A DNA stretch of 64,000 bases from a virus (Duplodnaviria; Caudoviricetes), in IMG/VR virus record IMGVR_UViG_3300028591_000171, positions 1 to 64,000 of that record, one strand, 5' to 3'. Every line of letters starts with the position of its first letter. Positions within the stretch are counted from its first letter, which is position 1. Shown in pieces: positions 3,553 to 17,786 of the stretch. Under the pieces are notes generated by a model, which saw only the letters and a list, made by a program, of their open reading frames with translations, had not been told where the DNA came from and ran no database searches. A program made the translations under genes and the position numbers.

Positions 3553-5997
3553 ATGTACTTTGATACCACATTCCCGAGACAGACGCTGCCGTACAAGTCC
3601 AAAGGTGACAAGTGGCGTGACGCCGTGATGTCTTGGGCTGAGAAGAAGACATATTTCAGCGACTCGCCTGTGAGGAAGAGCGTGGTTCACTCCAAGATTA
3701 ACTACGACCTTCTCAACGGCATAATCCATATGGAGGATGTCGCCGCCATACTGAATCCGGGTAACATATCCACAGCTTTCCTGCCGGAGAAGATACAGCA
3801 TTATCCCATCATCAACTCGAAGATCAACACGTTGAGGGGAGAGGAGGCTGGAAGGGTCTTTGACTGGAGGGTCATAGTGACCAACCCGTACTCAATATCC
3901 AAGATAGAGGAGGACAAGAGGGCGGCTTTCGACAAGTCGGTCCAGGAGATAGTCGAGGATACGTCGATAGACGCGCAGCAGGCCGAGTCCCAGCTCAGGG
4001 AGAACCAGGAGTTCTACGAGTACAGCTGGCAGGATCTGCGTGAGATAAGGGCCAATGAGCTTCTCAGGCATTACTCCAAGGAGCTGGGTTTCAAGCAGAT
4101 ATTCAACGACGGTTTCGTTGACGCGTGCGTTTGCGCCACGGAGGCTTACCAGTGCTGCATAGTCGGCGGCGAGCCGAGGATAGTAAGGATGAACCCGCTT
4201 AAGCTCAGGGCTTACTGCGCGGGATACTCCGACAGGCTCGAGGACGCCGACGTCATCATCTATGAGGACTACTGGACCAGGGGGAGGATCATCGACACGT
4301 GGTACGATGAGCTCTCCGCCAAGGACGTCAAGTGGCTGAGTGACGACATCCCGGAGTTCGGCGGCGACTCGTATCTGACACCTGAGGGGGCGTACAACGA
4401 GGCGGCTCCTTTCCTCAACGCCCGTCACATGATAGGCGAGGAGGGAATCCTCATAGGCGAGGGGAGCGGTCTCGGGTATGTCTATGACGCCTTCCCTGAG
4501 ATGGGTGGCGGATTGGGGACGACCCTTCTCCCGTATGATATAGCCGGCAATGTGAGGGTTCTCCGTGTCTGGTGGAAATCCAAGAGGAAGATATACAAGG
4601 TCAAGTCATACGACCCTGTCACCGGCGACGAGGTGTTCGACTTCTATCCAGAGACATACGTCCCCGACAAGGACGCCGGCGAGGAGGCGACGCCGCTGTG
4701 GATCAACGAGGCCTGGGAGGGCGTCAGGATAGGTGATAAGATAAACGTCGGGGTGCGCCCGTGCCTTGTGCAGCACAACTCGATATCCAACCCGTCGAGG
4801 TGCCATTTCGGCATCGTCGGCACAATATACAACATCAACGAGTCGAGGCCTTACTCCGTTGTCGACATGATGAAGCCGTACAACTACCTGTACGACGCAG
4901 TGCACGCGAAGCTCGTTGACCTCATAGCCACAAACTGGGGCAAGCTCCTCGAGATGGATCTGGCGCTCAAGCCGAAGAACTGGGAGGTTGACAAGTGGAT
5001 GTATTTCGCCAGGGCGAACAAGGTCCTCATCAAGGACTCCTTCAACGAGGGCAACAAGGGAGCCGCCACGGGCAAGCTCGCCGGAGGCCTCAACAACGCG
5101 TCGAAGGGTTATATCGACGCCGACTGGGGCAACTCCATACAGAACTACATCAGCATTCTCCAGTGGGCCAAGGACGCCATGTCGGATCTCGTGGGTATCA
5201 ACCGCCAGAGGGAGGGCAACACCTACAACAGGGAGACAGTAGGGGGCATCGAGAGGGCTGTCCTGCAGTCGTCATACATAACCGACTGGCTCTTCCAGAA
5301 GCATGACGACACCAAGAGAAGGGTTCTCGAGTGCTTCCTTGAGGAGTGCAAGGCCGCTCTAAGGGGCAGGAGCAAGAAGTTCCAGTACATACTGTCCGAT
5401 TACTCCATGAGGGTTATGGACATCGACGGCGACGAGTTCGCGGAGTCCGATTACGGGATAGTGGTGGACAACTCGACAGACACGCAGAAGCTCAACAGCC
5501 AGATAGAGACGATAGCCCAGGCGGCTGTGCAGAACCAGGCGCTTGACTTCGCCTCCATCCTCAAGCTCTACTCATCGGCATCCACGTCGGAGAAGATAAA
5601 GATAGTCGAGGTGTCCCAGAAGAGGGCGCAGCAGCAGGCTCAGGAGCAGGCCCAGCAGGCCCAGCAGCTCGAGCAGCAGAAGATACAGGCCCAGCAGCAG
5701 ATCGAGTCACAGAAGCTCCAGCAGCAGGATATCCTCAACCGGAGGGACAACGAGACAAAGATACAGGTCGCGGAGATCAACTCCAGGGCCGAGTACATGC
5801 GTCTCGGAATCTACGCTGAGGAGAACGACGAGGAGCTCGTTCACGAGAAGCTCGACATCGATAGGGAGAAGCTGCGCGAGGAGATAAGACAATTCGACAT
5901 GGAGTTGAGGCAGAAGGATAAGGAGCTTGACCAGAAGAAAGAGGTGGAACTCAAGAAGATAGCCGCGCAAAAAACTAAAGCGAGTAATAGCAAATAA
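3553..5997 (+). CDS. Portal protein (crAss-like)
   Basis: 814 aa after terL. IQHYPIINSKINTLRGEE segment typical of crAss-like portals; Q/E/K-rich coiled-coil C-terminus. Confidence 0.85.
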   Translation: MYFDTTFPRQTLPYKSKGDKWRDAVMSWAEKKTYFSDSPVRKSVVHSKINYDLLNGIIHMEDVAAILNPGNISTAFLPEKIQHYPIINSKINTLRGEEAGRVFDWRVIVTNPYSISKIEEDKRAAFDKSVQEIVEDTSIDAQQAESQLRENQEFYEYSWQDLREIRANELLRHYSKELGFKQIFNDGFVDACVCATEAYQCCIVGGEPRIVRMNPLKLRAYCAGYSDRLEDADVIIYEDYWTRGRIIDTWYDELSAKDVKWLSDDIPEFGGDSYLTPEGAYNEAAPFLNARHMIGEEGILIGEGSGLGYVYDAFPEMGGGLGTTLLPYDIAGNVRVLRVWWKSKRKIYKVKSYDPVTGDEVFDFYPETYVPDKDAGEEATPLWINEAWEGVRIGDKINVGVRPCLVQHNSISNPSRCHFGIVGTIYNINESRPYSVVDMMKPYNYLYDAVHAKLVDLIATNWGKLLEMDLALKPKNWEVDKWMYFARANKVLIKDSFNEGNKGAATGKLAGGLNNASKGYIDADWGNSIQNYISILQWAKDAMSDLVGINRQREGNTYNRETVGGIERAVLQSSYITDWLFQKHDDTKRRVLECFLEECKAALRGRSKKFQYILSDYSMRVMDIDGDEFAESDYGIVVDNSTDTQKLNSQIETIAQAAVQNQALDFASILKLYSSASTSEKIKIVEVSQKRAQQQAQEQAQQAQQLEQQKIQAQQQIESQKLQQQDILNRRDNETKIQVAEINSRAEYMRLGIYAEENDEELVHEKLDIDREKLREEIRQFDMELRQKDKELDQKKEVELKKIAAQKTKASNSK

Positions 5998-6011
5998 CTA
6001 AAGTAACAGAT

Positions 6012-6884
6012 ATGCACTTCACTAAATCACAGATAGAGGAGATAGCCAGGAGACTCGCCCTGATAACGAAGAGGGACTCCGAGCTTCCTGACGCCGAGAT
6101 TCCTCTCGACGAGTCGGAGAAGGTTCCGATCATACAGTACATACCTCTTGTGCAGGATTACGAGAACAGGCTCCTGTCTCTCGCTGATTTGAGGAGTCTT
6201 GTTCTCGCCGATGTTGACCAGACCGCCATAGCCTGCAGGCTTAAGGTCACATGTAACACTCCGGGCGCCACAGTCAAGATCAAGGGCTCGACGAGGACCA
6301 ACTATATCGGTTATTACGGCGAGATGGTTGATGTGGTTATCACGGCGAACGATTATGACGCGTGGTTCGGTGTCGTCACATTGACGCAGGACCATACTGT
6401 TGTGGTGTCGCTGAACAAGTCAGGAGGCGGATCTCCGACCCCGGGGACAACCACATACTATGTCAAGATAAACAATAACCAGAGCGCGAGGATAACGGTT
6501 AACGGAAATCAGGTCGCTTCAGGATCGATGAACTATTTCGAGTCTGACGAGCGTGTTGAGATTTACGTGACAAAGGACGGTTATACTCCATGGTCAAAGA
6601 CCATAACCGGCATAAGCTCGAACTTCACGCAAACTGTCATACTTACCCAATCCGAGGACGAGCAGGAGTCCCCTTACATAAGGTTCAATAAGGACGAGGT
6701 GAGGTTGCCGTCAATGAACGCGTCCGGATCCGCTGAGATACAGTCGAACATATCGTGGGAGATTGACGGGGATGACGCCAGGACTCCTGAGCAGGACGCC
6801 GACACCGACGAGCCGACAATCAATGACAGTGAGGTTTTGTCGACATACAACATGATTGTCGGTGAGAGTGTTGATCTTGAGTAA
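6012..6884 (+). CDS. Putative capsid/head-fibre anchor protein with Ig-like segments
   Basis: N-terminus (MHFT...KRDSELPDAEIPL...EKVPIIQ) and position after the portal gene resemble the crAss001 head-fibre trimer gene. Beta-rich repeats; BACON N-half (SNISWEI) and Big_2 N-half (MIVGESVDLE) near the C-terminus. Confidence 0.6.
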   Translation: MHFTKSQIEEIARRLALITKRDSELPDAEIPLDESEKVPIIQYIPLVQDYENRLLSLADLRSLVLADVDQTAIACRLKVTCNTPGATVKIKGSTRTNYIGYYGEMVDVVITANDYDAWFGVVTLTQDHTVVVSLNKSGGGSPTPGTTTYYVKINNNQSARITVNGNQVASGSMNYFESDERVEIYVTKDGYTPWSKTITGISSNFTQTVILTQSEDEQESPYIRFNKDEVRLPSMNASGSAEIQSNISWEIDGDDARTPEQDADTDEPTINDSEVLSTYNMIVGESVDLE

Positions 6885-6903
6885 ACAATAAAAATAATAT
6901 ATT

Positions 6904-8022
6904 ATGCCTAAGGTTTATAGAGTTAAGAACAGTAACATAGCCGAGGTTTCCAACGGTAAGTTGGTCGCGAAGTCGGCTGGACAGACCTCAATGTCGGTAT
7001 ATAATGATGTGGTGTCTGACGAGAACTATGTCGGTCAGGCGCAGATCAACGTCACATCCCAACAGGAGGCTGTCGAGACGTCGGGTATCTCGATAAGCCC
7101 GTCATCGGTAACACTCACCTTCGCCTATAATGTCGGGTTGCAGCTCAAGGCAACTATCACTCCGCCCTCGGCGTCAAGCAACGACATCGTCTGGACAACG
7201 TCTGACAAGAACATAGCGACTGTTAGCAAGAAGGGATACGTGAAGGCCGCGAAGAAGAAGGCTGGTGTCGCCACGATAACCGCCACGGCTAACGGGTACT
7301 CTGACACCTGTATAGTTACCGTTGACGCCAGCGGCACATATATCAAGTCGGTATCCCCTATTCAGTTAAGTGTGCCAGCCACGCGAAAAACAGACACCAA
7401 GATAAAGGTTGTCCAGGAGGTTCTTGGCGGATATGACTCAGGCTACACAGTGTTCTCTCCGCTTTATGATTCTGTGGAGACGTCAAGTGAGACTCCAACA
7501 GGGTTCAATCTCATCACTCCTGAGAACTGGGGAAACGCCAGGGAGTACACCGTGTATGTCCATGGAAACTACAATGATGACGAGGGATGCGAGATTAAGG
7601 TATCACAAGCCGGAAGCACGAAGGTCAAGGATTTCCGGGACAGCGACGAGGGTTATGTTGATTCTGACGGCACACCTTATCTTTATGGCGATTCACCTTT
7701 CACTGGAGCTATCTATTATGAGTGCGCCGTTGATTACGGTGCCCAAATCCTTAGTAACGTGAATGTGAGCGGGAGCTGGATACATCTTGACACCAGAAAT
7801 AGTGGTCTCGTTGGTCTCGGAACCGGTTATACCGCCACTCAGGTCAACGAGTACGCTCAACATGGGACGATTAATGGAGAGAACCCTCATTTTCAAGGCA
7901 AGACAGCTACATACTATGTTCGTGTAACATTTGACGCGAATGACGGGGCCGAGAGAACTGGAACTTTGACATTCCCTGGAAACAAGGTGTTTACAATACA
8001 CCAGGATGCTGAATCTATCTAA
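6904..8022 (+). CDS. Ig-like (Big_2) and BACON domain protein
   Basis: Big_2 signature ISISPSSVTL...LKATITP...IVWTTSDKNIATVSKKG.VKA...ATITATA; C-terminal ANDGAERTGTLTF...TIHQD BACON-like end. Confidence 0.75.
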   Translation: MPKVYRVKNSNIAEVSNGKLVAKSAGQTSMSVYNDVVSDENYVGQAQINVTSQQEAVETSGISISPSSVTLTFAYNVGLQLKATITPPSASSNDIVWTTSDKNIATVSKKGYVKAAKKKAGVATITATANGYSDTCIVTVDASGTYIKSVSPIQLSVPATRKTDTKIKVVQEVLGGYDSGYTVFSPLYDSVETSSETPTGFNLITPENWGNAREYTVYVHGNYNDDEGCEIKVSQAGSTKVKDFRDSDEGYVDSDGTPYLYGDSPFTGAIYYECAVDYGAQILSNVNVSGSWIHLDTRNSGLVGLGTGYTATQVNEYAQHGTINGENPHFQGKTATYYVRVTFDANDGAERTGTLTFPGNKVFTIHQDAESI

Positions 8023-8034
8023 TGAATATCTGAT

Positions 8035-8706
8035 ATGGCTACATATAACAACATAACATTGTCACCAGGTTCAGGCTCTGGCGACACTGGGCTGAGCGTG
8101 ACAGCGACCGACAACTGGGGTAGAAACGTGAGAAGCGCCGTGTTCACGGCTGGCAATACTGATTTGGACGTCGTGTCTGATAACAACCTTGTTGTCACAC
8201 AGAGCGGTCACGCGGCGTTCATAAGCTTGGAGAATGCGAGTGTGGGCTCATCCGGCGGGACCGTCACGATGTCCGGCTATTCGAATTACGAGACGTTGAC
8301 ATTCGCTGATCTCCCTGGAGGCAACTCCCTGTTGCAGTATTTCGACTCGGCGACCATAAGCACAGACGTTGAGATAAGTGATGTGCAGGAGTTGACATCA
8401 GGGTATTCTCCTACCGGTGATCCTGGCGGAACGAACCGCTATCCAGTCACGTTGACGTTTGACGTCCCAGGCGAGGCTGTCGCCGGAACATATTCTTTCA
8501 CTGTTAACGGCAACACTTTCACATGCGTGAAAGAGGGCGGAGTCGAGCCTGTCGGCGCTGAGATATGGTTCTCTGACGGGCAATCGTCAACACCCACGTC
8601 AATCAATTTGACAATAACACTTGATGCCGATGGTAACAGGTCTGGAGGTGCGTCAAGCCCGTATATCAACACGGATCCGGGCGGTACATCCTGGACAATA
8701 TCGTAG
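8035..8706 (+). CDS. BACON-like fibre protein
   Basis: Starts with LSPGSGSGDT.LSVTA.DNWGR..RSA..VVTQ and ends with ITLDADG...GTSWTIS. Confidence 0.7.
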   Translation: MATYNNITLSPGSGSGDTGLSVTATDNWGRNVRSAVFTAGNTDLDVVSDNNLVVTQSGHAAFISLENASVGSSGGTVTMSGYSNYETLTFADLPGGNSLLQYFDSATISTDVEISDVQELTSGYSPTGDPGGTNRYPVTLTFDVPGEAVAGTYSFTVNGNTFTCVKEGGVEPVGAEIWFSDGQSSTPTSINLTITLDADGNRSGGASSPYINTDPGGTSWTIS

Positions 8707-8732
8707 ACTGATGACTATTAAATATTAAGAAT

Positions 8733-10790
8733 ATGCCAACAAATCTACCATATAGCGGTAACGCGTCAGGGAGCGGGCAACAGAGTTTGACCGTAAATTG
8801 GGGCGCCAATCCGAGCAGAAGCTCATCAAGGAGCAGGACATACTCGGTCAACGGGGGACTCAACACGCTGACTGTGACACAGGTGAAATCGGACGCTCTC
8901 GCGGTCACGAGCTCCCAGGCATCAAAGAATACCACGAGCGGCTCGTCGTCGAAGACGGTGACGTTTGAGGGGTATGCGAACGGGAAGTATATAAGCTACT
9001 CGACATCTCTTTCTGGAGGTGTCACGGTATCGTCGGCGAAAGAGTATTCCGGAGGCACAACCGGGTCGGGCTTCTCGACAAACTGGAAGCAGGTCGACAG
9101 CTTCCTCGGCGGCACGAGCAAATACAAGTTTAACGTTACACTTAATATACCGGCGAACGCGCCTGTTAGCACAAGCCAGTTCACGGTATATACAAACGAT
9201 GTCACCACAAGCGCAGGGAAATCGAAGGCTTTCACCTTGAGGATAACAGAGTCAACCGTCGCGGTTGAGGATGTGACAGTGACTCCATCATCCGTCGCTA
9301 TTAACGTGGGTTCCAATTACAATGACTATGGCCTTGAGGCGGATGTATCTCCTAGCACGGCCACAAACAAGGACATCACATGGTCATCTGACAACACCGG
9401 CAAGGTCCTGGTTAACAGCGACGGATGGTTGAGGGGAGTGTCCGCAACATCATCGCCAGTGTCCGTATGGGCGATATCAGACGATGACCCGAGCATAAAG
9501 GATGACTGCAAGGTGTCGGTGTATAATCCGGGCAGTATCAGTTTGACAGATAACACGAGTGTCGCCAGTAGCGCCACAAGCGCCAGCATGACAATAACAC
9601 TGTCAAATATTAAGACAAGCACTCTGTCTATAAGCACCGGAAGCGCCTCGTGGATAAGCTCCGCGACGTATAACTCGTCTACCGGCAAGATAGATTTCGT
9701 TATCAGCGCCAACTCAGGGACACAGACAAGAGACACAACTGTAACAGTGACCGGAAGGGATATGGCGAACTCCATCAGGACCGATACGGCTACTTTGGCT
9801 CAATACGGCTCAGGGAGTCATGTTATTCCTCTTACGGCGCTGTCTGTAAATGGAGTCTCATCTATTGGTGACGACGGCACGATAGACCACAGGTATGACT
9901 TGACTTACACACCGTCCAACACTACGGAGACAGGAGTCACATGGGATGTTGTCGACGCCATATCAGGTAATAGCGTCGTAGGTTCTCTTGTCACGCTGTC
10001 ATCGCACTCGACTTATTGTATTGTCAGGGTAAGACCTGAGGGTCAGGCGAGCGGCGCCAATGTCAGGGTGCTGGCGATAAGTAATCCGCGACCTCTAATC
10101 TCAGGATACAAGGCTGTCACGGTTACTTACAACAGGCCTCTCGGAAATTTGACATCCGAGCCTCAGTCTGTGAATCTGAGATACAACGCCACCAATGACA
10201 GCACACCTGTCATCTCATGGGCTTACGAGACGCCAACTGTTTTAAGTTATGATGGTATCATCACAAGCGCGTCGTTGAATTCCCAGACCAATGTGCTGTC
10301 GATAACATGTACGCAGAACACAGACCCGTTCAATTACGCCTATGGTTCTGTCACGTTGGGAGGTTCGAGTTACACCTCGCTCACGATACCATATACTCAG
10401 GCGAAGGCTGATAACCCGTATGTCCACACTAGCGTGAATATCAGTAACATGTCTGTGTCAGGCAACGCTTATCCAATGTTGTCAGCCAATATAAATCTTG
10501 TCAACGGGAACGGCAACTACTATGAGTTCCCTCCCTCGTTCAGCTGGACATTGTACGGATATGAGTCATCAAGCTCATCCAATGGAACACAGATAGCGTC
10601 TGGGACAAAGACAAGCTACTCCAATTATGTCAATCCCAATTCCACTTATGCGGTGGTGCTGAACGTCACATCATCTGTGCCTACTGGGAACATGACGTAT
10701 TTCAAGCTTGAGGTTGAGATGGATAGGTACACGATATCTCCGGCTTACGCCGAGTTGGGAGATCCCGGTTCTTCCGAGATAACAGGTTAG
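8733..10790 (+). CDS. Ser/Thr-rich multi Ig-like (Big_2/BACON) protein
   Basis: Big_2 motif VTVTPSSVAINVG...ATNKDITWSSDN...VNSDG; BACON motif SWISSA...ISANSGTQTRDTTVTV. Confidence 0.75.
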   Translation: MPTNLPYSGNASGSGQQSLTVNWGANPSRSSSRSRTYSVNGGLNTLTVTQVKSDALAVTSSQASKNTTSGSSSKTVTFEGYANGKYISYSTSLSGGVTVSSAKEYSGGTTGSGFSTNWKQVDSFLGGTSKYKFNVTLNIPANAPVSTSQFTVYTNDVTTSAGKSKAFTLRITESTVAVEDVTVTPSSVAINVGSNYNDYGLEADVSPSTATNKDITWSSDNTGKVLVNSDGWLRGVSATSSPVSVWAISDDDPSIKDDCKVSVYNPGSISLTDNTSVASSATSASMTITLSNIKTSTLSISTGSASWISSATYNSSTGKIDFVISANSGTQTRDTTVTVTGRDMANSIRTDTATLAQYGSGSHVIPLTALSVNGVSSIGDDGTIDHRYDLTYTPSNTTETGVTWDVVDAISGNSVVGSLVTLSSHSTYCIVRVRPEGQASGANVRVLAISNPRPLISGYKAVTVTYNRPLGNLTSEPQSVNLRYNATNDSTPVISWAYETPTVLSYDGIITSASLNSQTNVLSITCTQNTDPFNYAYGSVTLGGSSYTSLTIPYTQAKADNPYVHTSVNISNMSVSGNAYPMLSANINLVNGNGNYYEFPPSFSWTLYGYESSSSSNGTQIASGTKTSYSNYVNPNSTYAVVLNVTSSVPTGNMTYFKLEVEMDRYTISPAYAELGDPGSSEITG

Positions 10791-10815
10791 ACAACTGAAA
10801 CATAATCTTTATGTC

Positions 10816-12753
<1,938 letters not shown>

Positions 12754-12756
12754 CTT

Positions 12757-13320
12757 ATGGACAGTCTCTTGTTGAGAAGGCGTTGTATTATAGGCGCGTT
12801 GGATAACGCCGGTCCACACGTTCCGACTGAGCGTACCGTGACTTTCCATCCGACGAGTGATGTGGTGAGCTGGGGTACTCGCGAGAAGGTCGATTACGTG
12901 TCATACGGTTATTCCGGCACGTCATCAACCACATACGCGAAGTTCAATCTTGCGGAGGTAGAGTCTGACGGTGCGCAGGTTGTGTATATATTCCAGAATC
13001 TCAACATACCGTCTGGCGCGGTTATAAAGAGCGTCACGTGCGATGTCAAGGCTGGCCTCAACTCTGACAAGCTGAAGATGTATTTTGAGTTGTGGAAATA
13101 TCCGCCATCAACCTCAAGCTCAGCCGTGGGCACATCCAAGACCGTGAAAAGAGCCGAAGTCGACATATACACTCTCGGAAACAGGGGAAGGTGGTCAGTG
13201 GAGGAGCTGAATCAGGATGTCTATATGTGGGTAGCCGCAACGAGGATTGAGGGTGAGTCAACTGGTGAGGCATACGGCATGTTTTACGGCGCGAATCTTA
13301 ATATAACATACGAGTATTAA
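12757..13320 (+). CDS. Hypothetical beta-rich protein, likely fibre-associated
   Basis: 187 aa ORF with MDSLLLRRR start, in operon between two fibre genes. Confidence 0.6.
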   Translation: MDSLLLRRRCIIGALDNAGPHVPTERTVTFHPTSDVVSWGTREKVDYVSYGYSGTSSTTYAKFNLAEVESDGAQVVYIFQNLNIPSGAVIKSVTCDVKAGLNSDKLKMYFELWKYPPSTSSSAVGTSKTVKRAEVDIYTLGNRGRWSVEELNQDVYMWVAATRIEGESTGEAYGMFYGANLNITYEY

Positions 13321-13334
13321 AATAACAGTTAATT

Positions 13335-15806
13335 ATGAAGATAATAGAGAGGATAGTTGAGTCTGATGGCTCTCCGAATCAGACCAATGACTTGTGGTTG
13401 AAAGCCAGCGGCGATAATGTCGCGCTTAAATACTTCTTTAACGGTGAGTGGAGATCTATCACCGACGGAAGCTCAGTCAGCAGCGATGATGTCGATAGGA
13501 TAATCTCGTTGACACAATCGGAGTATGACGGTTTGCCTGAGAAAGATTCTAAGTCATTGTATATCATGGCTGACACAGGTAAGATAGCTCTTGGCTCGTC
13601 AATGATATCAGGCGCCGATGGTGTCGGTGTGCAGTCTGTCGTGCAGACAACAGTGTCTCAGGAGGATGGCGGGACCAATGTCTGGACTATCACTCTCACT
13701 AACGGGCAGACGTCAACGCTTCGGGTTAAGAACGGTAATCAGGGGAACTCTGGTTACTCTGGAGCCGCAGGCGAGCTGGAGGTCGTTAACAACCTTACCG
13801 ATGGTGGTGCGACAGCCGCCTTGTCAGCCGAGATGGGAGCAGTGCTGGAAGGGGAAGTCAGTCAGTTACGCTCCGAAGTAAACACATTAGGAGACAGTAT
13901 AGGAACTGGGGCCACAAGAATAATAACATCCTCGTCTTTTCCCAACCCAGGCCGTTATCTTGCCAACGGCACATTGTCGCAGACTGGCTGGCATCATACT
14001 GACCAGATTCCGATAGGGCCTGGTGAGGTTGTCAAGACAAAACTCTATCAAGGTACAACCCCGTCAACTACCACACCCGCAATTATTTTTTATGATAGCA
14101 ACGGTGGCGTTGTCAGTTATGTACTCGCCGATGGCGGTGGTATCCATACTCAGGATTACACGACGCCAGCAAACACGGCATCCTTCCGTGTCCAGACTCT
14201 CGGAACCGCAGAGGAGATGGCACAATGCTATTATTCGCTTGATAGGTCATTTGTTGGAACGAATGTGCTGGATAAAAGACTTGAGATAGTTGAGCAAAAT
14301 CTCAATAGTGTGGCATCTTTGTTCGACTCAAAACTTTTTACAATTACAGGCTTTATTGGTGGAACTGGTTCGGTAAAAACAAATAATGGGTACAAACGCA
14401 CAGATTATCTTGATGCGTCAAATATCATTTCGGTCTCCATTTATATGGCAATCTCGGCATATCAATCGCTTGCCGCTGTCGCTTGGTTTGACGCAAATAA
14501 GGCATTCATATCATGCGAAAAAATGAGTGATGCCAACCCTGCGATTGTTACGTCGAAAAGACCAGACAATGCTCGATATGTTGTTCTATCCACCAATGAC
14601 GCAAATGTGTCATTGGTAAATGGAGAGGCGATTGTCACTTCGATCAATACCACGGTGTTTTTATCCCCGATTGGCAATGATAGCGCAAAAGGCGAGGAGA
14701 CGTCAGCATTGAAAACTTCGTTCGCCGCTAAATCCCATGCCGCGAAAGAGATCATTTTTCTGCCAGGCGATTATGATAACTTTGTCCTTGATTTCTCCGA
14801 CTTTGAGAGATATGTTTTCAGAAACGGAGCAAGGCTTATTTGCGGGATAAAGTTCGCAGAAGCCGAACTTGCGTCCGGGTATAGCCGAGTGTATCAGGTG
14901 ACTTGTGATTCAGAGCCTACGGCAAAATTCTTATGGCAGCATGATGTAGCGGATGCCGACACCTTGATACCATCCTCCGAGTACCTCCCAATGTATCATT
15001 CTGGCAGAACCCACAGACTTTCGTCAACAAGACTATATAAGGCATCAAGTGTCGCGGATATTGAGTCGGAAACATCAAAATATACTTGGTTCTGGGATAA
15101 TGGAGTCCTTTACTTTTCATGCCCGTCCACAAACTTTGCAACAAATCCCATTGTTATTCCAGATGTTTTAGGCAACCAATATGTTGCGACAAAGAAGAAA
15201 AACATTTCGGTAACAGGGATGCGATTGTACTATCGCAGGTTTAATAGCCGTCGGATCTCTGGCCACTTTGATGGCGGTTTTGTGGGGTTTGTTGATGGGA
15301 CTTGCTTTGGCTTCGACTCAAACGAGTACCTTGAGATTAACAATTTCGAGGCCGCAGGAGGTTCTACTGATGGATTCGGCGGCGGCTTTGATGAAAACGT
15401 AAGTTATCAGATTATTATGAAGAATTGCTATGGCCATGATAATGCTGACGACGGAGAATCCGGGCATGTGAAAACAAACATGACACAGTACGGCGGCCTA
15501 TATGAGTATAACGGAAGTGGTGTCACTCCGGCTGTCGGAGCTAATGGTTCATATTATAACACGATTTGTCGAAACAATGGAGTGTATGACTGGACGGTTG
15601 GATATCAAGATGGGAAGGGATTTTCCGCCGCTGCCGGGTCAGATCCAAACACCAACCTCCTTTGTGTGGGTTGTCTCTCGATAGGAAATAAGATAGGCTA
15701 TGAGGCGAGCGCTGGATCAATTTTCTTGAACTGTGTGTCAAAGGATGACGATGTGGATTTTCGTGGCACGGCTCAACAACTTAACTGTGTCACATTATCA
15801 ACATAA
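13335..15806 (+). CDS. Fibre/spike protein with C-terminal right-handed beta-helix (pectin-lyase-like) module
   Basis: Fibre-type N-terminus, two repeated beta domains, and parallel beta-helix signatures (NCYGHDNADDGES.H, GGLYEYNG, NTICRNN). A depolymerase role is inferred. Confidence 0.7.
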   Translation: MKIIERIVESDGSPNQTNDLWLKASGDNVALKYFFNGEWRSITDGSSVSSDDVDRIISLTQSEYDGLPEKDSKSLYIMADTGKIALGSSMISGADGVGVQSVVQTTVSQEDGGTNVWTITLTNGQTSTLRVKNGNQGNSGYSGAAGELEVVNNLTDGGATAALSAEMGAVLEGEVSQLRSEVNTLGDSIGTGATRIITSSSFPNPGRYLANGTLSQTGWHHTDQIPIGPGEVVKTKLYQGTTPSTTTPAIIFYDSNGGVVSYVLADGGGIHTQDYTTPANTASFRVQTLGTAEEMAQCYYSLDRSFVGTNVLDKRLEIVEQNLNSVASLFDSKLFTITGFIGGTGSVKTNNGYKRTDYLDASNIISVSIYMAISAYQSLAAVAWFDANKAFISCEKMSDANPAIVTSKRPDNARYVVLSTNDANVSLVNGEAIVTSINTTVFLSPIGNDSAKGEETSALKTSFAAKSHAAKEIIFLPGDYDNFVLDFSDFERYVFRNGARLICGIKFAEAELASGYSRVYQVTCDSEPTAKFLWQHDVADADTLIPSSEYLPMYHSGRTHRLSSTRLYKASSVADIESETSKYTWFWDNGVLYFSCPSTNFATNPIVIPDVLGNQYVATKKKNISVTGMRLYYRRFNSRRISGHFDGGFVGFVDGTCFGFDSNEYLEINNFEAAGGSTDGFGGGFDENVSYQIIMKNCYGHDNADDGESGHVKTNMTQYGGLYEYNGSGVTPAVGANGSYYNTICRNNGVYDWTVGYQDGKGFSAAAGSDPNTNLLCVGCLSIGNKIGYEASAGSIFLNCVSKDDDVDFRGTAQQLNCVTLST
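13854..13876 (+). repeat. Left cassette-boundary site, copy 1 (GAAGTCAGTCAGTTACGCTCCGA)
   Basis: Identical 23-mer at 60895-60917; 48/56 identity over 13821-13876 vs 60862-60917. Encodes EVSQLRS. Confidence 0.9.
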
Positions 15807-15811
15807 TCACA

Positions 15812-15834
15812 TAGCCCCCTAATCGACTGAGTTA
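15812..15834 (+). repeat. Right cassette-boundary site, copy 1 (TAGCCCCCTAATCGACTGAGTTA)
   Basis: 21/23 identical to 62560-62582. Confidence 0.85.
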
Positions 15835-15854
15835 ATTTAAATACGTTACTAATA

Positions 15855-15889
15855 AAAACCCCTGTCAGATAAGTTCTGGCGGGGGTTTT
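15855..15889 (+). terminator. Intrinsic terminator
   Basis: AAAACCCC-TGTCAGA / TCTGGCG-GGGGTTTT hairpin after the fibre operon. Confidence 0.75.
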
Positions 15890-15974
15890 AGCATTGTTGT
15901 CTTTCATCAGTCTGCCATGATAATTTCGTGTCAGAGTCGCGCGGCTCATGATGTGAAATTTAAAACTAAAAATT

Positions 15975-16883
15975 ATGGCAGATGTAACTTACATTCCTGA
16001 TCAGAATCAGGCAAACAACATCCTACCTTGGATGCTCGCCGGCAACAACGGGTTCGGCGGAATTGGAGGTAACGGTCTCGGCGGCGGAATCCTCGGATTC
16101 CTTCTCGGTCTTTTCTTCGGGAACGGTTGGGGAGGATTTGGTGGATTCGGCGGTTTCGGCGGAGGTAACGGAGCCGGGTTTATCTCTAACCAGATAGACA
16201 ACAACGCCGGAAGAGAGCTTCTTATGAACGCCATCAACTCCAACGGTGAGGCTTCCAGAGCCGCTATCCAGAATCTCGCGACAATGCTCGGGCAGGATTA
16301 CAGCCAGGTCAGCTCGGCTGTCTCCGCTATCCAGAGCGGGTTGTCGTCGCTCGCTCTCCAGCAGGCGGTGTCTGTTCCCCAGCTGATCAACTCTATCCAG
16401 TCCGGTAACTCGACTCTCATGTCCAAGCTTTGTGACTGCTGCTGCGAGAACAGGCTTCTCACCACGCAGCAGGGTTACGAGTCACGGATAGCGACCATCG
16501 AGCAGACCAACCAGCTCGGATCCCAAGCTGACCGCAACACACGCTCAATCACTGACGCGATCAACGCCCAGACAGTCGCGATGAACGACCAGTTCTGCGC
16601 CGCGAAGGAGCGTGACCTCCAGCTGAAGATTGACACGCAGTCTGACATCATCACCCAACTTCGTAACCAGATAAGCAACGATAAGCAGACTGAGGCTTTC
16701 ACAGCCGCTTTTAACACCCTCAACCAGAAGATAACCGAGTTGTCTGCGCGCCAGCCCAACACTGTCCCAGTCGTGTGGCCCAATCTCGCGGCTGTTAACA
16801 CCACTCCTTATGTGAGCGGCGGTTATTACCAGGGTGGATTCAACGGCTACTATGGTGGCGGTGTTCCCGGTTTCTCATTCTAA
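15975..16883 (+). CDS. Gly-rich/hydrophobic N-terminus, CDCCCEN motif, coiled-coil protein of unknown function
   Basis: 302 aa with strong codon bias; first gene of a six-gene module. Confidence 0.75.
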   Translation: MADVTYIPDQNQANNILPWMLAGNNGFGGIGGNGLGGGILGFLLGLFFGNGWGGFGGFGGFGGGNGAGFISNQIDNNAGRELLMNAINSNGEASRAAIQNLATMLGQDYSQVSSAVSAIQSGLSSLALQQAVSVPQLINSIQSGNSTLMSKLCDCCCENRLLTTQQGYESRIATIEQTNQLGSQADRNTRSITDAINAQTVAMNDQFCAAKERDLQLKIDTQSDIITQLRNQISNDKQTEAFTAAFNTLNQKITELSARQPNTVPVVWPNLAAVNTTPYVSGGYYQGGFNGYYGGGVPGFSF

Positions 16884-16894
16884 TACTCTGAGCC

Positions 16895-17239
16895 ATGTTC
16901 GGATTCAATGTAAATGTTACGACGAATGTCAACGGCATACCGTTCATCACCACTAACGGTGTCACCGTGACGGCTGATTCCGTTGACTTCGCCTTGGGCT
17001 TCAGGAGGATTCCGAAGATCGGGAAGATAATCCTTAACGTCAATGACGCCATCCCTGACGGGACTACCGGCACTCTGCCTGTGAGGTTCACGCTAAATGG
17101 AAACACAAGGAACCTGACGTACTTCGGCGGGACGAATGTGACCGCTGCTGACATAACCGGCACCGGCGTCATCGAGGCTTTGTTCAATTGGTTTGACGGG
17201 ACGTTCCAGATCACGTCTGTTCTCGCTCCCGCGGCCTGA
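16895..17239 (+). CDS. Small beta-rich hypothetical protein
   Basis: 114 aa ORF in operon. Confidence 0.7.
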   Translation: MFGFNVNVTTNVNGIPFITTNGVTVTADSVDFALGFRRIPKIGKIILNVNDAIPDGTTGTLPVRFTLNGNTRNLTYFGGTNVTAADITGTGVIEALFNWFDGTFQITSVLAPAA

Positions 17240-17267
17240 TATGTTTGATTTAAAATAATTACAAGCG

Positions 17268-17786
17268 ATGTTTCAGGGATATAACCAGAGCCTGACACCT
17301 ATAACACAAGGCTCAACCATGTACATATATGACAGGAAGGCTTTCGGAGTCAAGACAGCCATGGTAAACTCCGTGTCACAACCCCACATCTCAAAGGCGG
17401 CGCAGGGCAATCCGGCGCTGGCGTTCCAGGGATTCGTAGTTGACGTGTCACTCTCGGTTGACGGTGACACGAAGACTGTGGAGTTCCCGGTGAACAGCGT
17501 GTCCGCATCTTACGCCGAGCAGGGTTGGTTCATGAGCTACGACAGCTCCGTGGTGACGCGCGAGATAGAATCGTCGATATCGGCGGCTAAACAGTTTCTC
17601 TCACAGGTTCCGCTCAACGAGCGTATCGTCAAGGATGGACCTGAGCTGATATCGCAGCTTAACCCGTCCAAAAGGATTGAGGAACAGAGCATGAGGGAAA
17701 TAGCCGGTATACGTGAGGAGCTCGCCGAGTTCAAGAGGCTGCTCATGGGAATGTCGTCTGGCATCGCCAAAAAAGAGGAACAATAA
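17268..17786 (+). CDS. Hypothetical protein with C-terminal coiled coil
   Basis: 172 aa ORF in operon. Confidence 0.7.
   Translation: MFQGYNQSLTPITQGSTMYIYDRKAFGVKTAMVNSVSQPHISKAAQGNPALAFQGFVVDVSLSVDGDTKTVEFPVNSVSASYAEQGWFMSYDSSVVTREIESSISAAKQFLSQVPLNERIVKDGPELISQLNPSKRIEEQSMREIAGIREELAEFKRLLMGMSSGIAKKEEQ

Follow-up and report, generated by a model that had tools for sequence, protein, structure and literature searches.

Ig-like domains cut by gene boundaries in a crAss-like phage suggest a branched fibre joined by half-fold complementation

Why should neighbouring genes of a phage begin or end inside an immunoglobulin (Ig)-like fold? The question is raised by the window analyzed here, a stretch of 64,000 nucleotides (nt; positions 1 to 64,000 of IMG/VR virus record IMGVR_UViG_3300028591_000171), in which five genes on the plus strand follow the portal gene (3553-5997): 6012-6884, 6904-8022, 8035-8706, 8733-10790 and 10816-12753. 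We refer to genes and their products by their start positions. The products of the first four comprise 290, 372, 223 and 685 amino acids (aa), respectively, and the analysis confirmed that genes of this group end or start inside Ig-like folds. The window is a crAss-like phage genome, belonging to Crassvirales, as indicated by a crassvirus major capsid protein (Crass_capsid, E = 2.7e-139), an auxiliary capsid protein (crAss_AuxCP, E = 5.9e-56) and the portal (phrog_6547, E = 5.8e-125). With moderate confidence, we propose from the sequences that 6012 (anchor), 8035 (link), 8733 (tip) and 6904 (branch) would form a branched fibre, joined by complementation of half-folds between chains.

The Pfam BACON model omits the first strands of the fold, and we therefore constructed a BACON model of 84 positions, using 25 complete repeats taken from unrelated long proteins. 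Its consensus runs over strands A-C from …YLSVSPESISL… through …TSNVEWTAS… and over strands D-G from …SWLTVSPASGSG… to …ITVTQ. According to this model, 6012 contains an orphan first half (A-C) at residues 219-252 (6666-6767), with no D-G half after it in the protein; residues 222-254 corresponded to positions 1-33 of the 84 (12.5 bits). The N-terminus of 8035 (residues 1-57; 8035-8205) is a second half (D-G). Its residues 7-57 corresponded to positions 37-84 (34.6-38.1 bits), and Pfam BACON (PF13004) matched residues 7-56 at profile positions 12-60 of 61 (E = 0.031 for the whole protein, 0.001 for the fragment). The tip 8733 likewise opens with a D-G half (residues 1-50; 8733-8882) that no A-C half precedes; the half-model matched it with 14.8 bits (E = 0.003), and residues 11-50 corresponded to positions 42-83 of the 84 (8.3 bits). 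When the half of 6012 and the N-terminus of 8035 were joined in silico, one full-length match was obtained (positions 1-84, 58 bits). A whole domain appeared only after this joining; 6012 and the N-termini of 8035 and 8733 each gave half-length matches only. Thus, three statements of the initial annotation were borne out, namely an unpaired first half in 6012, a second half at the start of 8035 and a second half only at the start of 8733. The half-length profile matches that it expected at the termini were also found, including those of PF19190 to relatives of 8035, which PF13004 matched with E values down to 8.5e-11.

In 8035, the D-G half is followed by a complete beta-sandwich (residues 58-168; 8206-8538), which AlphaFold2 modelled with predicted local distance difference test (pLDDT) values above 90. 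Its best solved matches were cohesin and other Ig-like sandwiches (Z = 7.0, root-mean-square deviation (rmsd) 3.1, 100 residues aligned, model residues 55-168). The C-terminus (residues 172-223; 8548-8703, ending …SWTIS) was also described initially as a BACON first half. Here the outcome was mixed: the region is divergent and carries an insertion, and the 84-position model was not significant on it. Profile-profile comparison using hhalign placed C-termini of the 8035 type on canonical A-C halves in the expected register (E = 0.0017, probability 15%), and the AlphaFold2 model contains beta strands at residues 176-181, 194-196 and 209-214. We regard this region as a probable A-C half mainly on account of its end-to-end homology with relatives that end canonically (…SNTxWTVS, then stop). 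The tip 8733 is alignable with the link family over residues 1-175; beyond its D-G half (8883-10790) it possesses a middle domain resembling the one in 8035, a Big_2 domain (residues 177-245, Pfam E = 2.4e-08), a whole BACON-like domain (residues 274-345, positions 8-75 of the BACON model) and a variable distal part.

The BACON cut is conserved. An exhaustive HMMER search for the 8035 family yielded 75 cluster representatives at 50% identity, 62 of which were proteins of 150-270 aa, mostly aligned over most of their length. In all 62, the match to the BACON model set in at positions 31-43, within the first 16 residues of the protein, and 32 of the proteins ended at positions 29-33 with 0-4 residues left over (16 in one). 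None of the 62 contained a whole BACON domain as judged by the 84-position model. Pfam BACON_2 (PF19190), a model of 94 positions, matched the N-termini of relatives with its positions 42-94. All 20 family clusters of 6012 retained the A-C half. Further, among 867 adjacent same-strand pairs of open reading frames (ORFs) from 81 loci, the C-terminal motif was present in 43 upstream ORFs and the N-terminal motif in eight downstream ORFs. Both motifs occurred in seven pairs, compared with 0.40 expected; that is, seven of the eight ORFs with the N-terminal motif come directly after an ORF with the C-terminal motif. A word-based search detected no longer, fused forms of 8035, which is weak evidence.

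A second fold is cut at the 6012/6904 boundary. Downstream of its BACON half, 6012 continues with an acidic Asp/Glu/Pro-rich linker (6768-6824), read from the sequence and of a kind conserved across the family. Its C-terminus is formed by the opening strands of an Ig domain of Big_2/HL_N-beta-like type (6825-6881; …SEVLSTYNMIVGESVDLE, then stop), a motif found in eight split cassettes. Whereas 6012 ends …STYNMIVGESVDLE, 6904 starts MPKVYRVKNSNIAEVSNGKLVAKSAGQTSM…, and together they can be read as a single Big_2/HL_N-beta-like domain (6825-7059). The remainder of this split domain occupies residues 1-52 of the branch protein (6904-8022), in which Pfam HL_N-beta matched residues 5-35 at profile positions 16-46 of 57 (29.8 bits, as a fragment). 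A complete Big_2 domain follows at residues 61-138, and the C-terminal domain, ending …VFTIHQDAESI, is apparently complete. Eight other cassettes are cut at the same Big_2 point. In two related phage loci, the homologues of 6012 and 6904 are fused: in L001, whose portal is 84% identical, they form one continuous ORF (4912-6831, …DIE-ND-MGLTYK…), and in L085 they form a complete protein of 697 aa (ORF 530-2623). (Labels of this kind, L001, L028, L037, L061, L076, L079, L082-L085 and L088-L091, denote loci of related phages.) Because the pieces are fused in L001 and L085, they correspond to one domain that is one physical unit in these relatives, and such Rosetta-stone fusions across the Big_2 cut support pairing between chains.

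We identified nine cassettes with an anchor of the 6012 type, in the window, L082, L083, L084, L085 and L088-L091, all of which retain the A-C half of the anchor. Each of the nine contains exactly one anchor, one link that starts with D-G and ends with A-C, and one tip, which starts with D-G in every case. The halves are conserved, are carried on separate genes and are always inherited together. In the window the cassette comes after the portal; in L082, L084 and L085 it lies just ahead of the lysis and capsid genes. From these different positions we conclude that it moves as a unit and is mobile within crAss-like genomes. In L082 (2830-7605), L084 (2987-7790) and L085 (530-5693), the whole four-gene cassette lies between DUF7841-type and lysis/capsid genes, which corresponds to the position of gp29 in PhicrAss001. 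In two cassettes of tip-first order, a small predicted membrane protein of 64 or 75 aa is encoded between tip and link (L083, 4801-4995; L089, 11106-11333).

Chains with canonical halves were found in other relatives. In L037, a 532-aa anchor ending in A-C is followed by a 554-aa protein that runs from D-G to A-C and then by a 170-aa protein that starts with D-G, and L076, L028, L079 and L061 have a similar chain. The longer anchor of L037 was considered as an anchor-link fusion at the BACON joint and was rejected; it carries an unrelated extra domain.

Could the separate genes nevertheless be read as one polypeptide? The gene 6012 ends GAG TAA, followed by a 19-nt A/T-rich spacer and the ATG of 6904. 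The gene 6904 ends TAA TGA, followed by four codons and the ATG of 8035. The 8035/8733 junction (8704-8732) consists of a TAG and a 26-nt A/T-rich spacer with further stops: a TAA lies in frame four codons downstream of the TAG, and a TGA precedes the ATG of 8733 in the frame of that gene, which is another one. The reading frames of 6012, 6904, 8035 and 8733 are 0, 1, 1 and 0, respectively. Because the stops are real, the genes have their own ATGs and the frames differ, recoding or read-through would be unable to join the proteins. Read-through would not explain the pattern either, because the genes are separate and the order of link and tip varies among relatives. The initial annotation had judged read-through unlikely, and we agree, adding that 6904 and 8035 are in the same frame, with nothing but TAA TGA and four codons between them (8020-8034). 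This junction is not a split joint, since 6904 apparently closes with a complete domain. The link and tip of L076 (13837-15588) and L084 (5001-7790) also lie in one frame with only TAA codons between them, the gap measuring 12 nt in L084 and 15 nt, with one more TAA in frame, in L076.

Stop codons are recoded in some crAss-like phages, and this, together with the common frame of 6904 and 8035, speaks for ORFs merged by read-through, frameshifting, stop-codon recoding or assembly errors. Against such a merger stand the presence of both TAA and TGA in the 6904/8035 gap, the TAA beyond the stop of 8035 with 8733 in a different frame behind a TGA, and boundaries that are identical, own ATGs included, across dozens of independent assemblies and both gene orders. 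We consider a single polypeptide scarcely credible.

Alternatively, fission of a gene for a long BACON/Big_2 repeat protein might have left the halves behind as flexible linkers or decayed remnants with no role in assembly. Proteins with tandem BACON repeats are frequent in crAss-like phages (PMC6949934), and both fission and fusion occur at the Big_2 site. Decay is nevertheless difficult to reconcile with halves whose sequence and position are conserved over 62 and 20 clusters at 50% identity or less, with a cut that is always in the same loop, and with counts of A-C and D-G halves that balance in nine of nine cassettes. We therefore regard the absence of any pairing as highly improbable.

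In an Ig-like sandwich, strands A-C and D-G both contribute to both sheets. Because each set of strands enters both sheets, neither half should fold alone, and the orphan halves of anchor and tip should therefore need a partner in trans. The orphan halves on 6012 and 8733 are most economically explained by completion between chains. In the scheme that we propose, 6012, 6904, 8035 and 8733 would constitute a single modular fibre of the virion, most probably a head fibre, with subunits joined non-covalently through Ig-like domains rebuilt from halves on different polypeptides. The anchor would bind the virion via its conserved N-terminus and offer two plugs, the BACON A-C half and the Big_2-like first strands. 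Because 6904 starts with the rest of the latter domain, it could dock on the Big_2 plug as a side branch. The link 8035 would dock with its N-terminal D-G half on the BACON plug of 6012, and its divergent A-C half would in turn receive the D-G half with which the tip 8733 begins. Anchor, link and tip would thus most likely follow one another in this order, with 6904 branching off. Such a chain would explain how the link, which has no attachment domain of its own, reaches the virion, and long links (554 aa, with several intervening domains) favour it. The initial annotation held that the subunits complete each other's Ig fold. The conserved halves on separate genes and the Big_2 fusions agree with this idea, and from them we infer both the pairing between chains and which half pairs with which.

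Several observations weigh against this chain. The C-terminal half of 8035 has only a weak likeness to canonical A-C halves. Five of the nine cassettes have the link before the tip and four the reverse, so that adjacency is not universal, and the collinearity of gene order with anchor, link and tip that the initial annotation assumed was not upheld. L028 (17053-18241) has two A-C ends, on a 188-aa anchor and a 200-aa link, and one D-G start within 22 kb; its tip gene may be located elsewhere, or else the final half stays without a partner. Finally, the AlphaFold2 monomer of 8035, computed from a 58-sequence alignment, had a pLDDT of 94.7 and a predicted template modelling score (pTM) of 0.72, with both halves at 89-97, whereas in the model of 8733 residues 1-175, which has no A-C half, the D-G part reached 79-89 compared with 93-97 for the middle domain. 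The tip N-terminus was folded alone, not as a link-tip fusion, because MAFFT put all tip fragments on the link part, a bias.

Because both halves of 8035 are confident and the partnerless D-G half of 8733 is lower, the model suggests that 8035 completes its own BACON domain, by circular permutation around the cohesin-like middle domain. Under such intramolecular closure, which is the main rival of the proposed chain, the 8035 family would consist of circular permutants whose own D-G and A-C halves fold around the middle domain. Pairing between chains would then be confined to the A-C half of 6012 and the D-G half of 8733, and 8035 would be a separate two-domain protein. The pLDDT and pTM values above speak for closure, as do two features of the cassettes: the counts of halves balance under closure as well, and the link gene may follow the tip gene. 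Moreover, as is known from domain swapping, a partner in the same chain has a much higher effective concentration. Closure would, on the other hand, leave the link with no known attachment to the virion, yet one link is present in each of the nine cassettes, and for the 554-aa links (L037, L076), which hold several domains between the two halves, it would require a large ring. An apparent self-completion may also be an artefact of modelling one chain on its own; we would expect predictors to self-complement proteins that are naturally completed by a neighbour, as with pilins. We consider closure unlikely.

Structure searches with the 8035 model gave little to separate these readings. Foldseek against the PDB returned generic multi-Ig matches only (best E = 3.5e-03), a wide structure search matched only the middle domain, and a search of BFVD returned homologous phage proteins (TM 0.60, rmsd 8.3 Å) that are uninformative on closure. 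Segment-wise identities between cassettes, which are few and interdependent, did not separate chain from closure. Profile scores in five cassettes, which are not independent, placed the A-C half of the anchor and the D-G half of the link nearer the canonical model and found the A-C half of the link and, less consistently, the D-G half of the tip more divergent. This difference is a weak hint that two specificities may exist.

A further possibility, raised by the initial annotation, is that 8035 polymerizes head to tail between anchor and tip, (8035)n, to give a fibre of variable length. The protein carries both a socket and a plug, and if the AlphaFold2 model does pair them, they are mutually compatible, as the subunits of a homopolymer would have to be. 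This idea found no support in the analysis: there was no sign of oligomers, only one link gene is present per cassette in all nine, and the cassettes reveal no capping logic. Further, the combination of a divergent A-C half with a canonical D-G half resembles two specificities more than a self-matching pair. A homopolymer is accordingly highly unlikely in our estimation.

To which part of the virion would the branched fibre be attached? The anchor protein (6012-6884) consists of a conserved N-terminal predicted attachment region (residues 1-70), two PEGA/head-fibre-like beta domains and the two plugs. Twenty homologous clusters of about 290 aa share its C-terminal layout of A-C half, acidic linker and Big_2 first strands. 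Pfam PEGA matched 6012 with E = 9.5e-05; PF25641 (Head_fiber_dimeric) gave no match to it at E up to 1. The anchor of L076 contains four PF25641 repeats (E = 8.5e-42), that of L037 also belongs to this type (three or four copies in the two anchors; E = 3e-35 for L037), and 6012 matched the L076 anchor in BLASTP with E = 1e-09, the terminal A-C half included. BLASTP of 6012 against gp21 and gp29 of PhicrAss001 gave no significant match, and the N-termini of 6012 and gp29 did not align. In PhicrAss001, the N-terminus of the dimeric head fibre gp29 binds capsid hexons (PMC10172136). Because 6012 is homologous to an anchor with repeats of the gp29 type, we regard it as an anchor that is plausibly related to the crAss dimeric head-fibre protein, and a capsid fibre as plausible. 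The initial annotation had proposed a capsid fibre; what stands behind it is the L076 anchor with PF25641, while 6012 itself matches PEGA.

The surroundings of the cassette were also examined. There are 384 related portals in IMG/VR; no close relatives of 8035 were found in IMG/VR or among GenBank phages, and a DNA search of the cassette region against phages gave no match. The fifth gene (10816-12753) encodes a collagen-repeat fibre protein with a Cys-rich N-terminus that is weakly similar to Pfam crAss_PVA, the portal vertex auxiliary protein (E = 0.026). The same N-terminus starts the gene after the cassette in L088-L091, and the distal parts differ. L090 has a 251-aa gene (3802-4557) with a faint match to NUMOD3, of homing-endonuclease type, between terminase and portal, where the window has none.

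We classify the proposed joints, by analogy, as a variant of fold or donor-strand complementation. The chaperone-usher pili (Fim, Pap, CFA/I) likewise complete an incomplete Ig-like fold with sequence from the next subunit, and their fibres, which comprise anchor, rod and tip adhesin, are ordered, non-covalent and very stable, as the proposed one would be. In contrast, a pilin lacks one strand and receives one donor strand, whereas about three strands (A-C) would meet about four (D-G) here. Assembly would be cytoplasmic, on the virus particle, and the subunits differ from each other and are encoded by single-copy genes, with no homopolymer. Neither a PapD-like chaperone nor an usher was detected when the genes downstream of the portal (6012-17786) were scanned with Pfam and PHROG. 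Type V pili of Bacteroidota (FimA/Mfa1; PMC4789730) occur in the same host phylum, and strands of a neighbour complete an Ig-like domain there too. Their pilins are lipoproteins activated by protease at the cell surface, whereas no such signals were seen in the cassette proteins, and fold, cut position and cellular setting are all different. In muscle, myomesin and obscurin-like-1 (PMC5222588) are two proteins joined because one supplies the missing Ig part of the other. There, a single linker strand is supplied, in the eukaryotic cytoskeleton and not in a recurrent modular plug/socket system.

Among phage proteins, BACON-repeat proteins (crAssphage gp64; PMC6949934; PF13004, PF19190) belong to the same domain family and occur in the tail or fibre modules of phages that infect Bacteroidota, and the whole BACON-like domain inside 8733 is of this kind. 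They carry whole domains in tandem in one protein, in contrast to the halves on separate genes described here, and a text search of PMC6949934 revealed no mention of BACON domains cut by gene boundaries. The head fibres of PhicrAss001, gp29 (dimeric) and gp21 (trimeric), are the other point of comparison (PMC10172136). The C-terminal domain of gp29 (PF25641) is the one repeated in the L037 and L076 anchors, and the cassette in L082, L084 and L085 occupies the gp29 position beside lysis and capsid genes. In contrast to these anchors and cassettes, gp29 is a lone protein of 122 aa that has one distal domain and lacks half-domains. Full-text literature searches, including the PhicrAss001 atlas (PMC10172136), returned no description of BACON or Big_2 domains split across phage genes. 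What is new, in addition, is the tie to a crAss head-fibre anchor, the constant content of anchor, link and tip in nine cassettes with two gene orders, and a second fold (Big_2) that is cut likewise and has natural fusions.

If the halves do pair between chains, they would represent a distinct, chaperone-free mode of appendage assembly, with ordered and probably very stable joints folded from two proteins. The annotation of proteins now described as "BACON domain-containing", "cellulase" or "hypothetical" would be corrected to links and tips of one fibre, and the cassettes might offer natural orthogonal split-domain pairs for protein engineering. As a tentative generalization, which we hold to be possible but short of probable, gut and rumen phages, crAss-like phages included, may build chaperone-free fibres by obligate half-fold complementation. 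BACON and Big_2 domains cut at fixed loops would then serve as orthogonal plugs and sockets that set the order of assembly, with tips swappable between phages as cassettes. For crAss-like phages, assembly of this kind would explain the cassette-wise exchange of host- or mucus-binding tips and how the flexible fibres unresolved in the PhicrAss001 structure could hold together.

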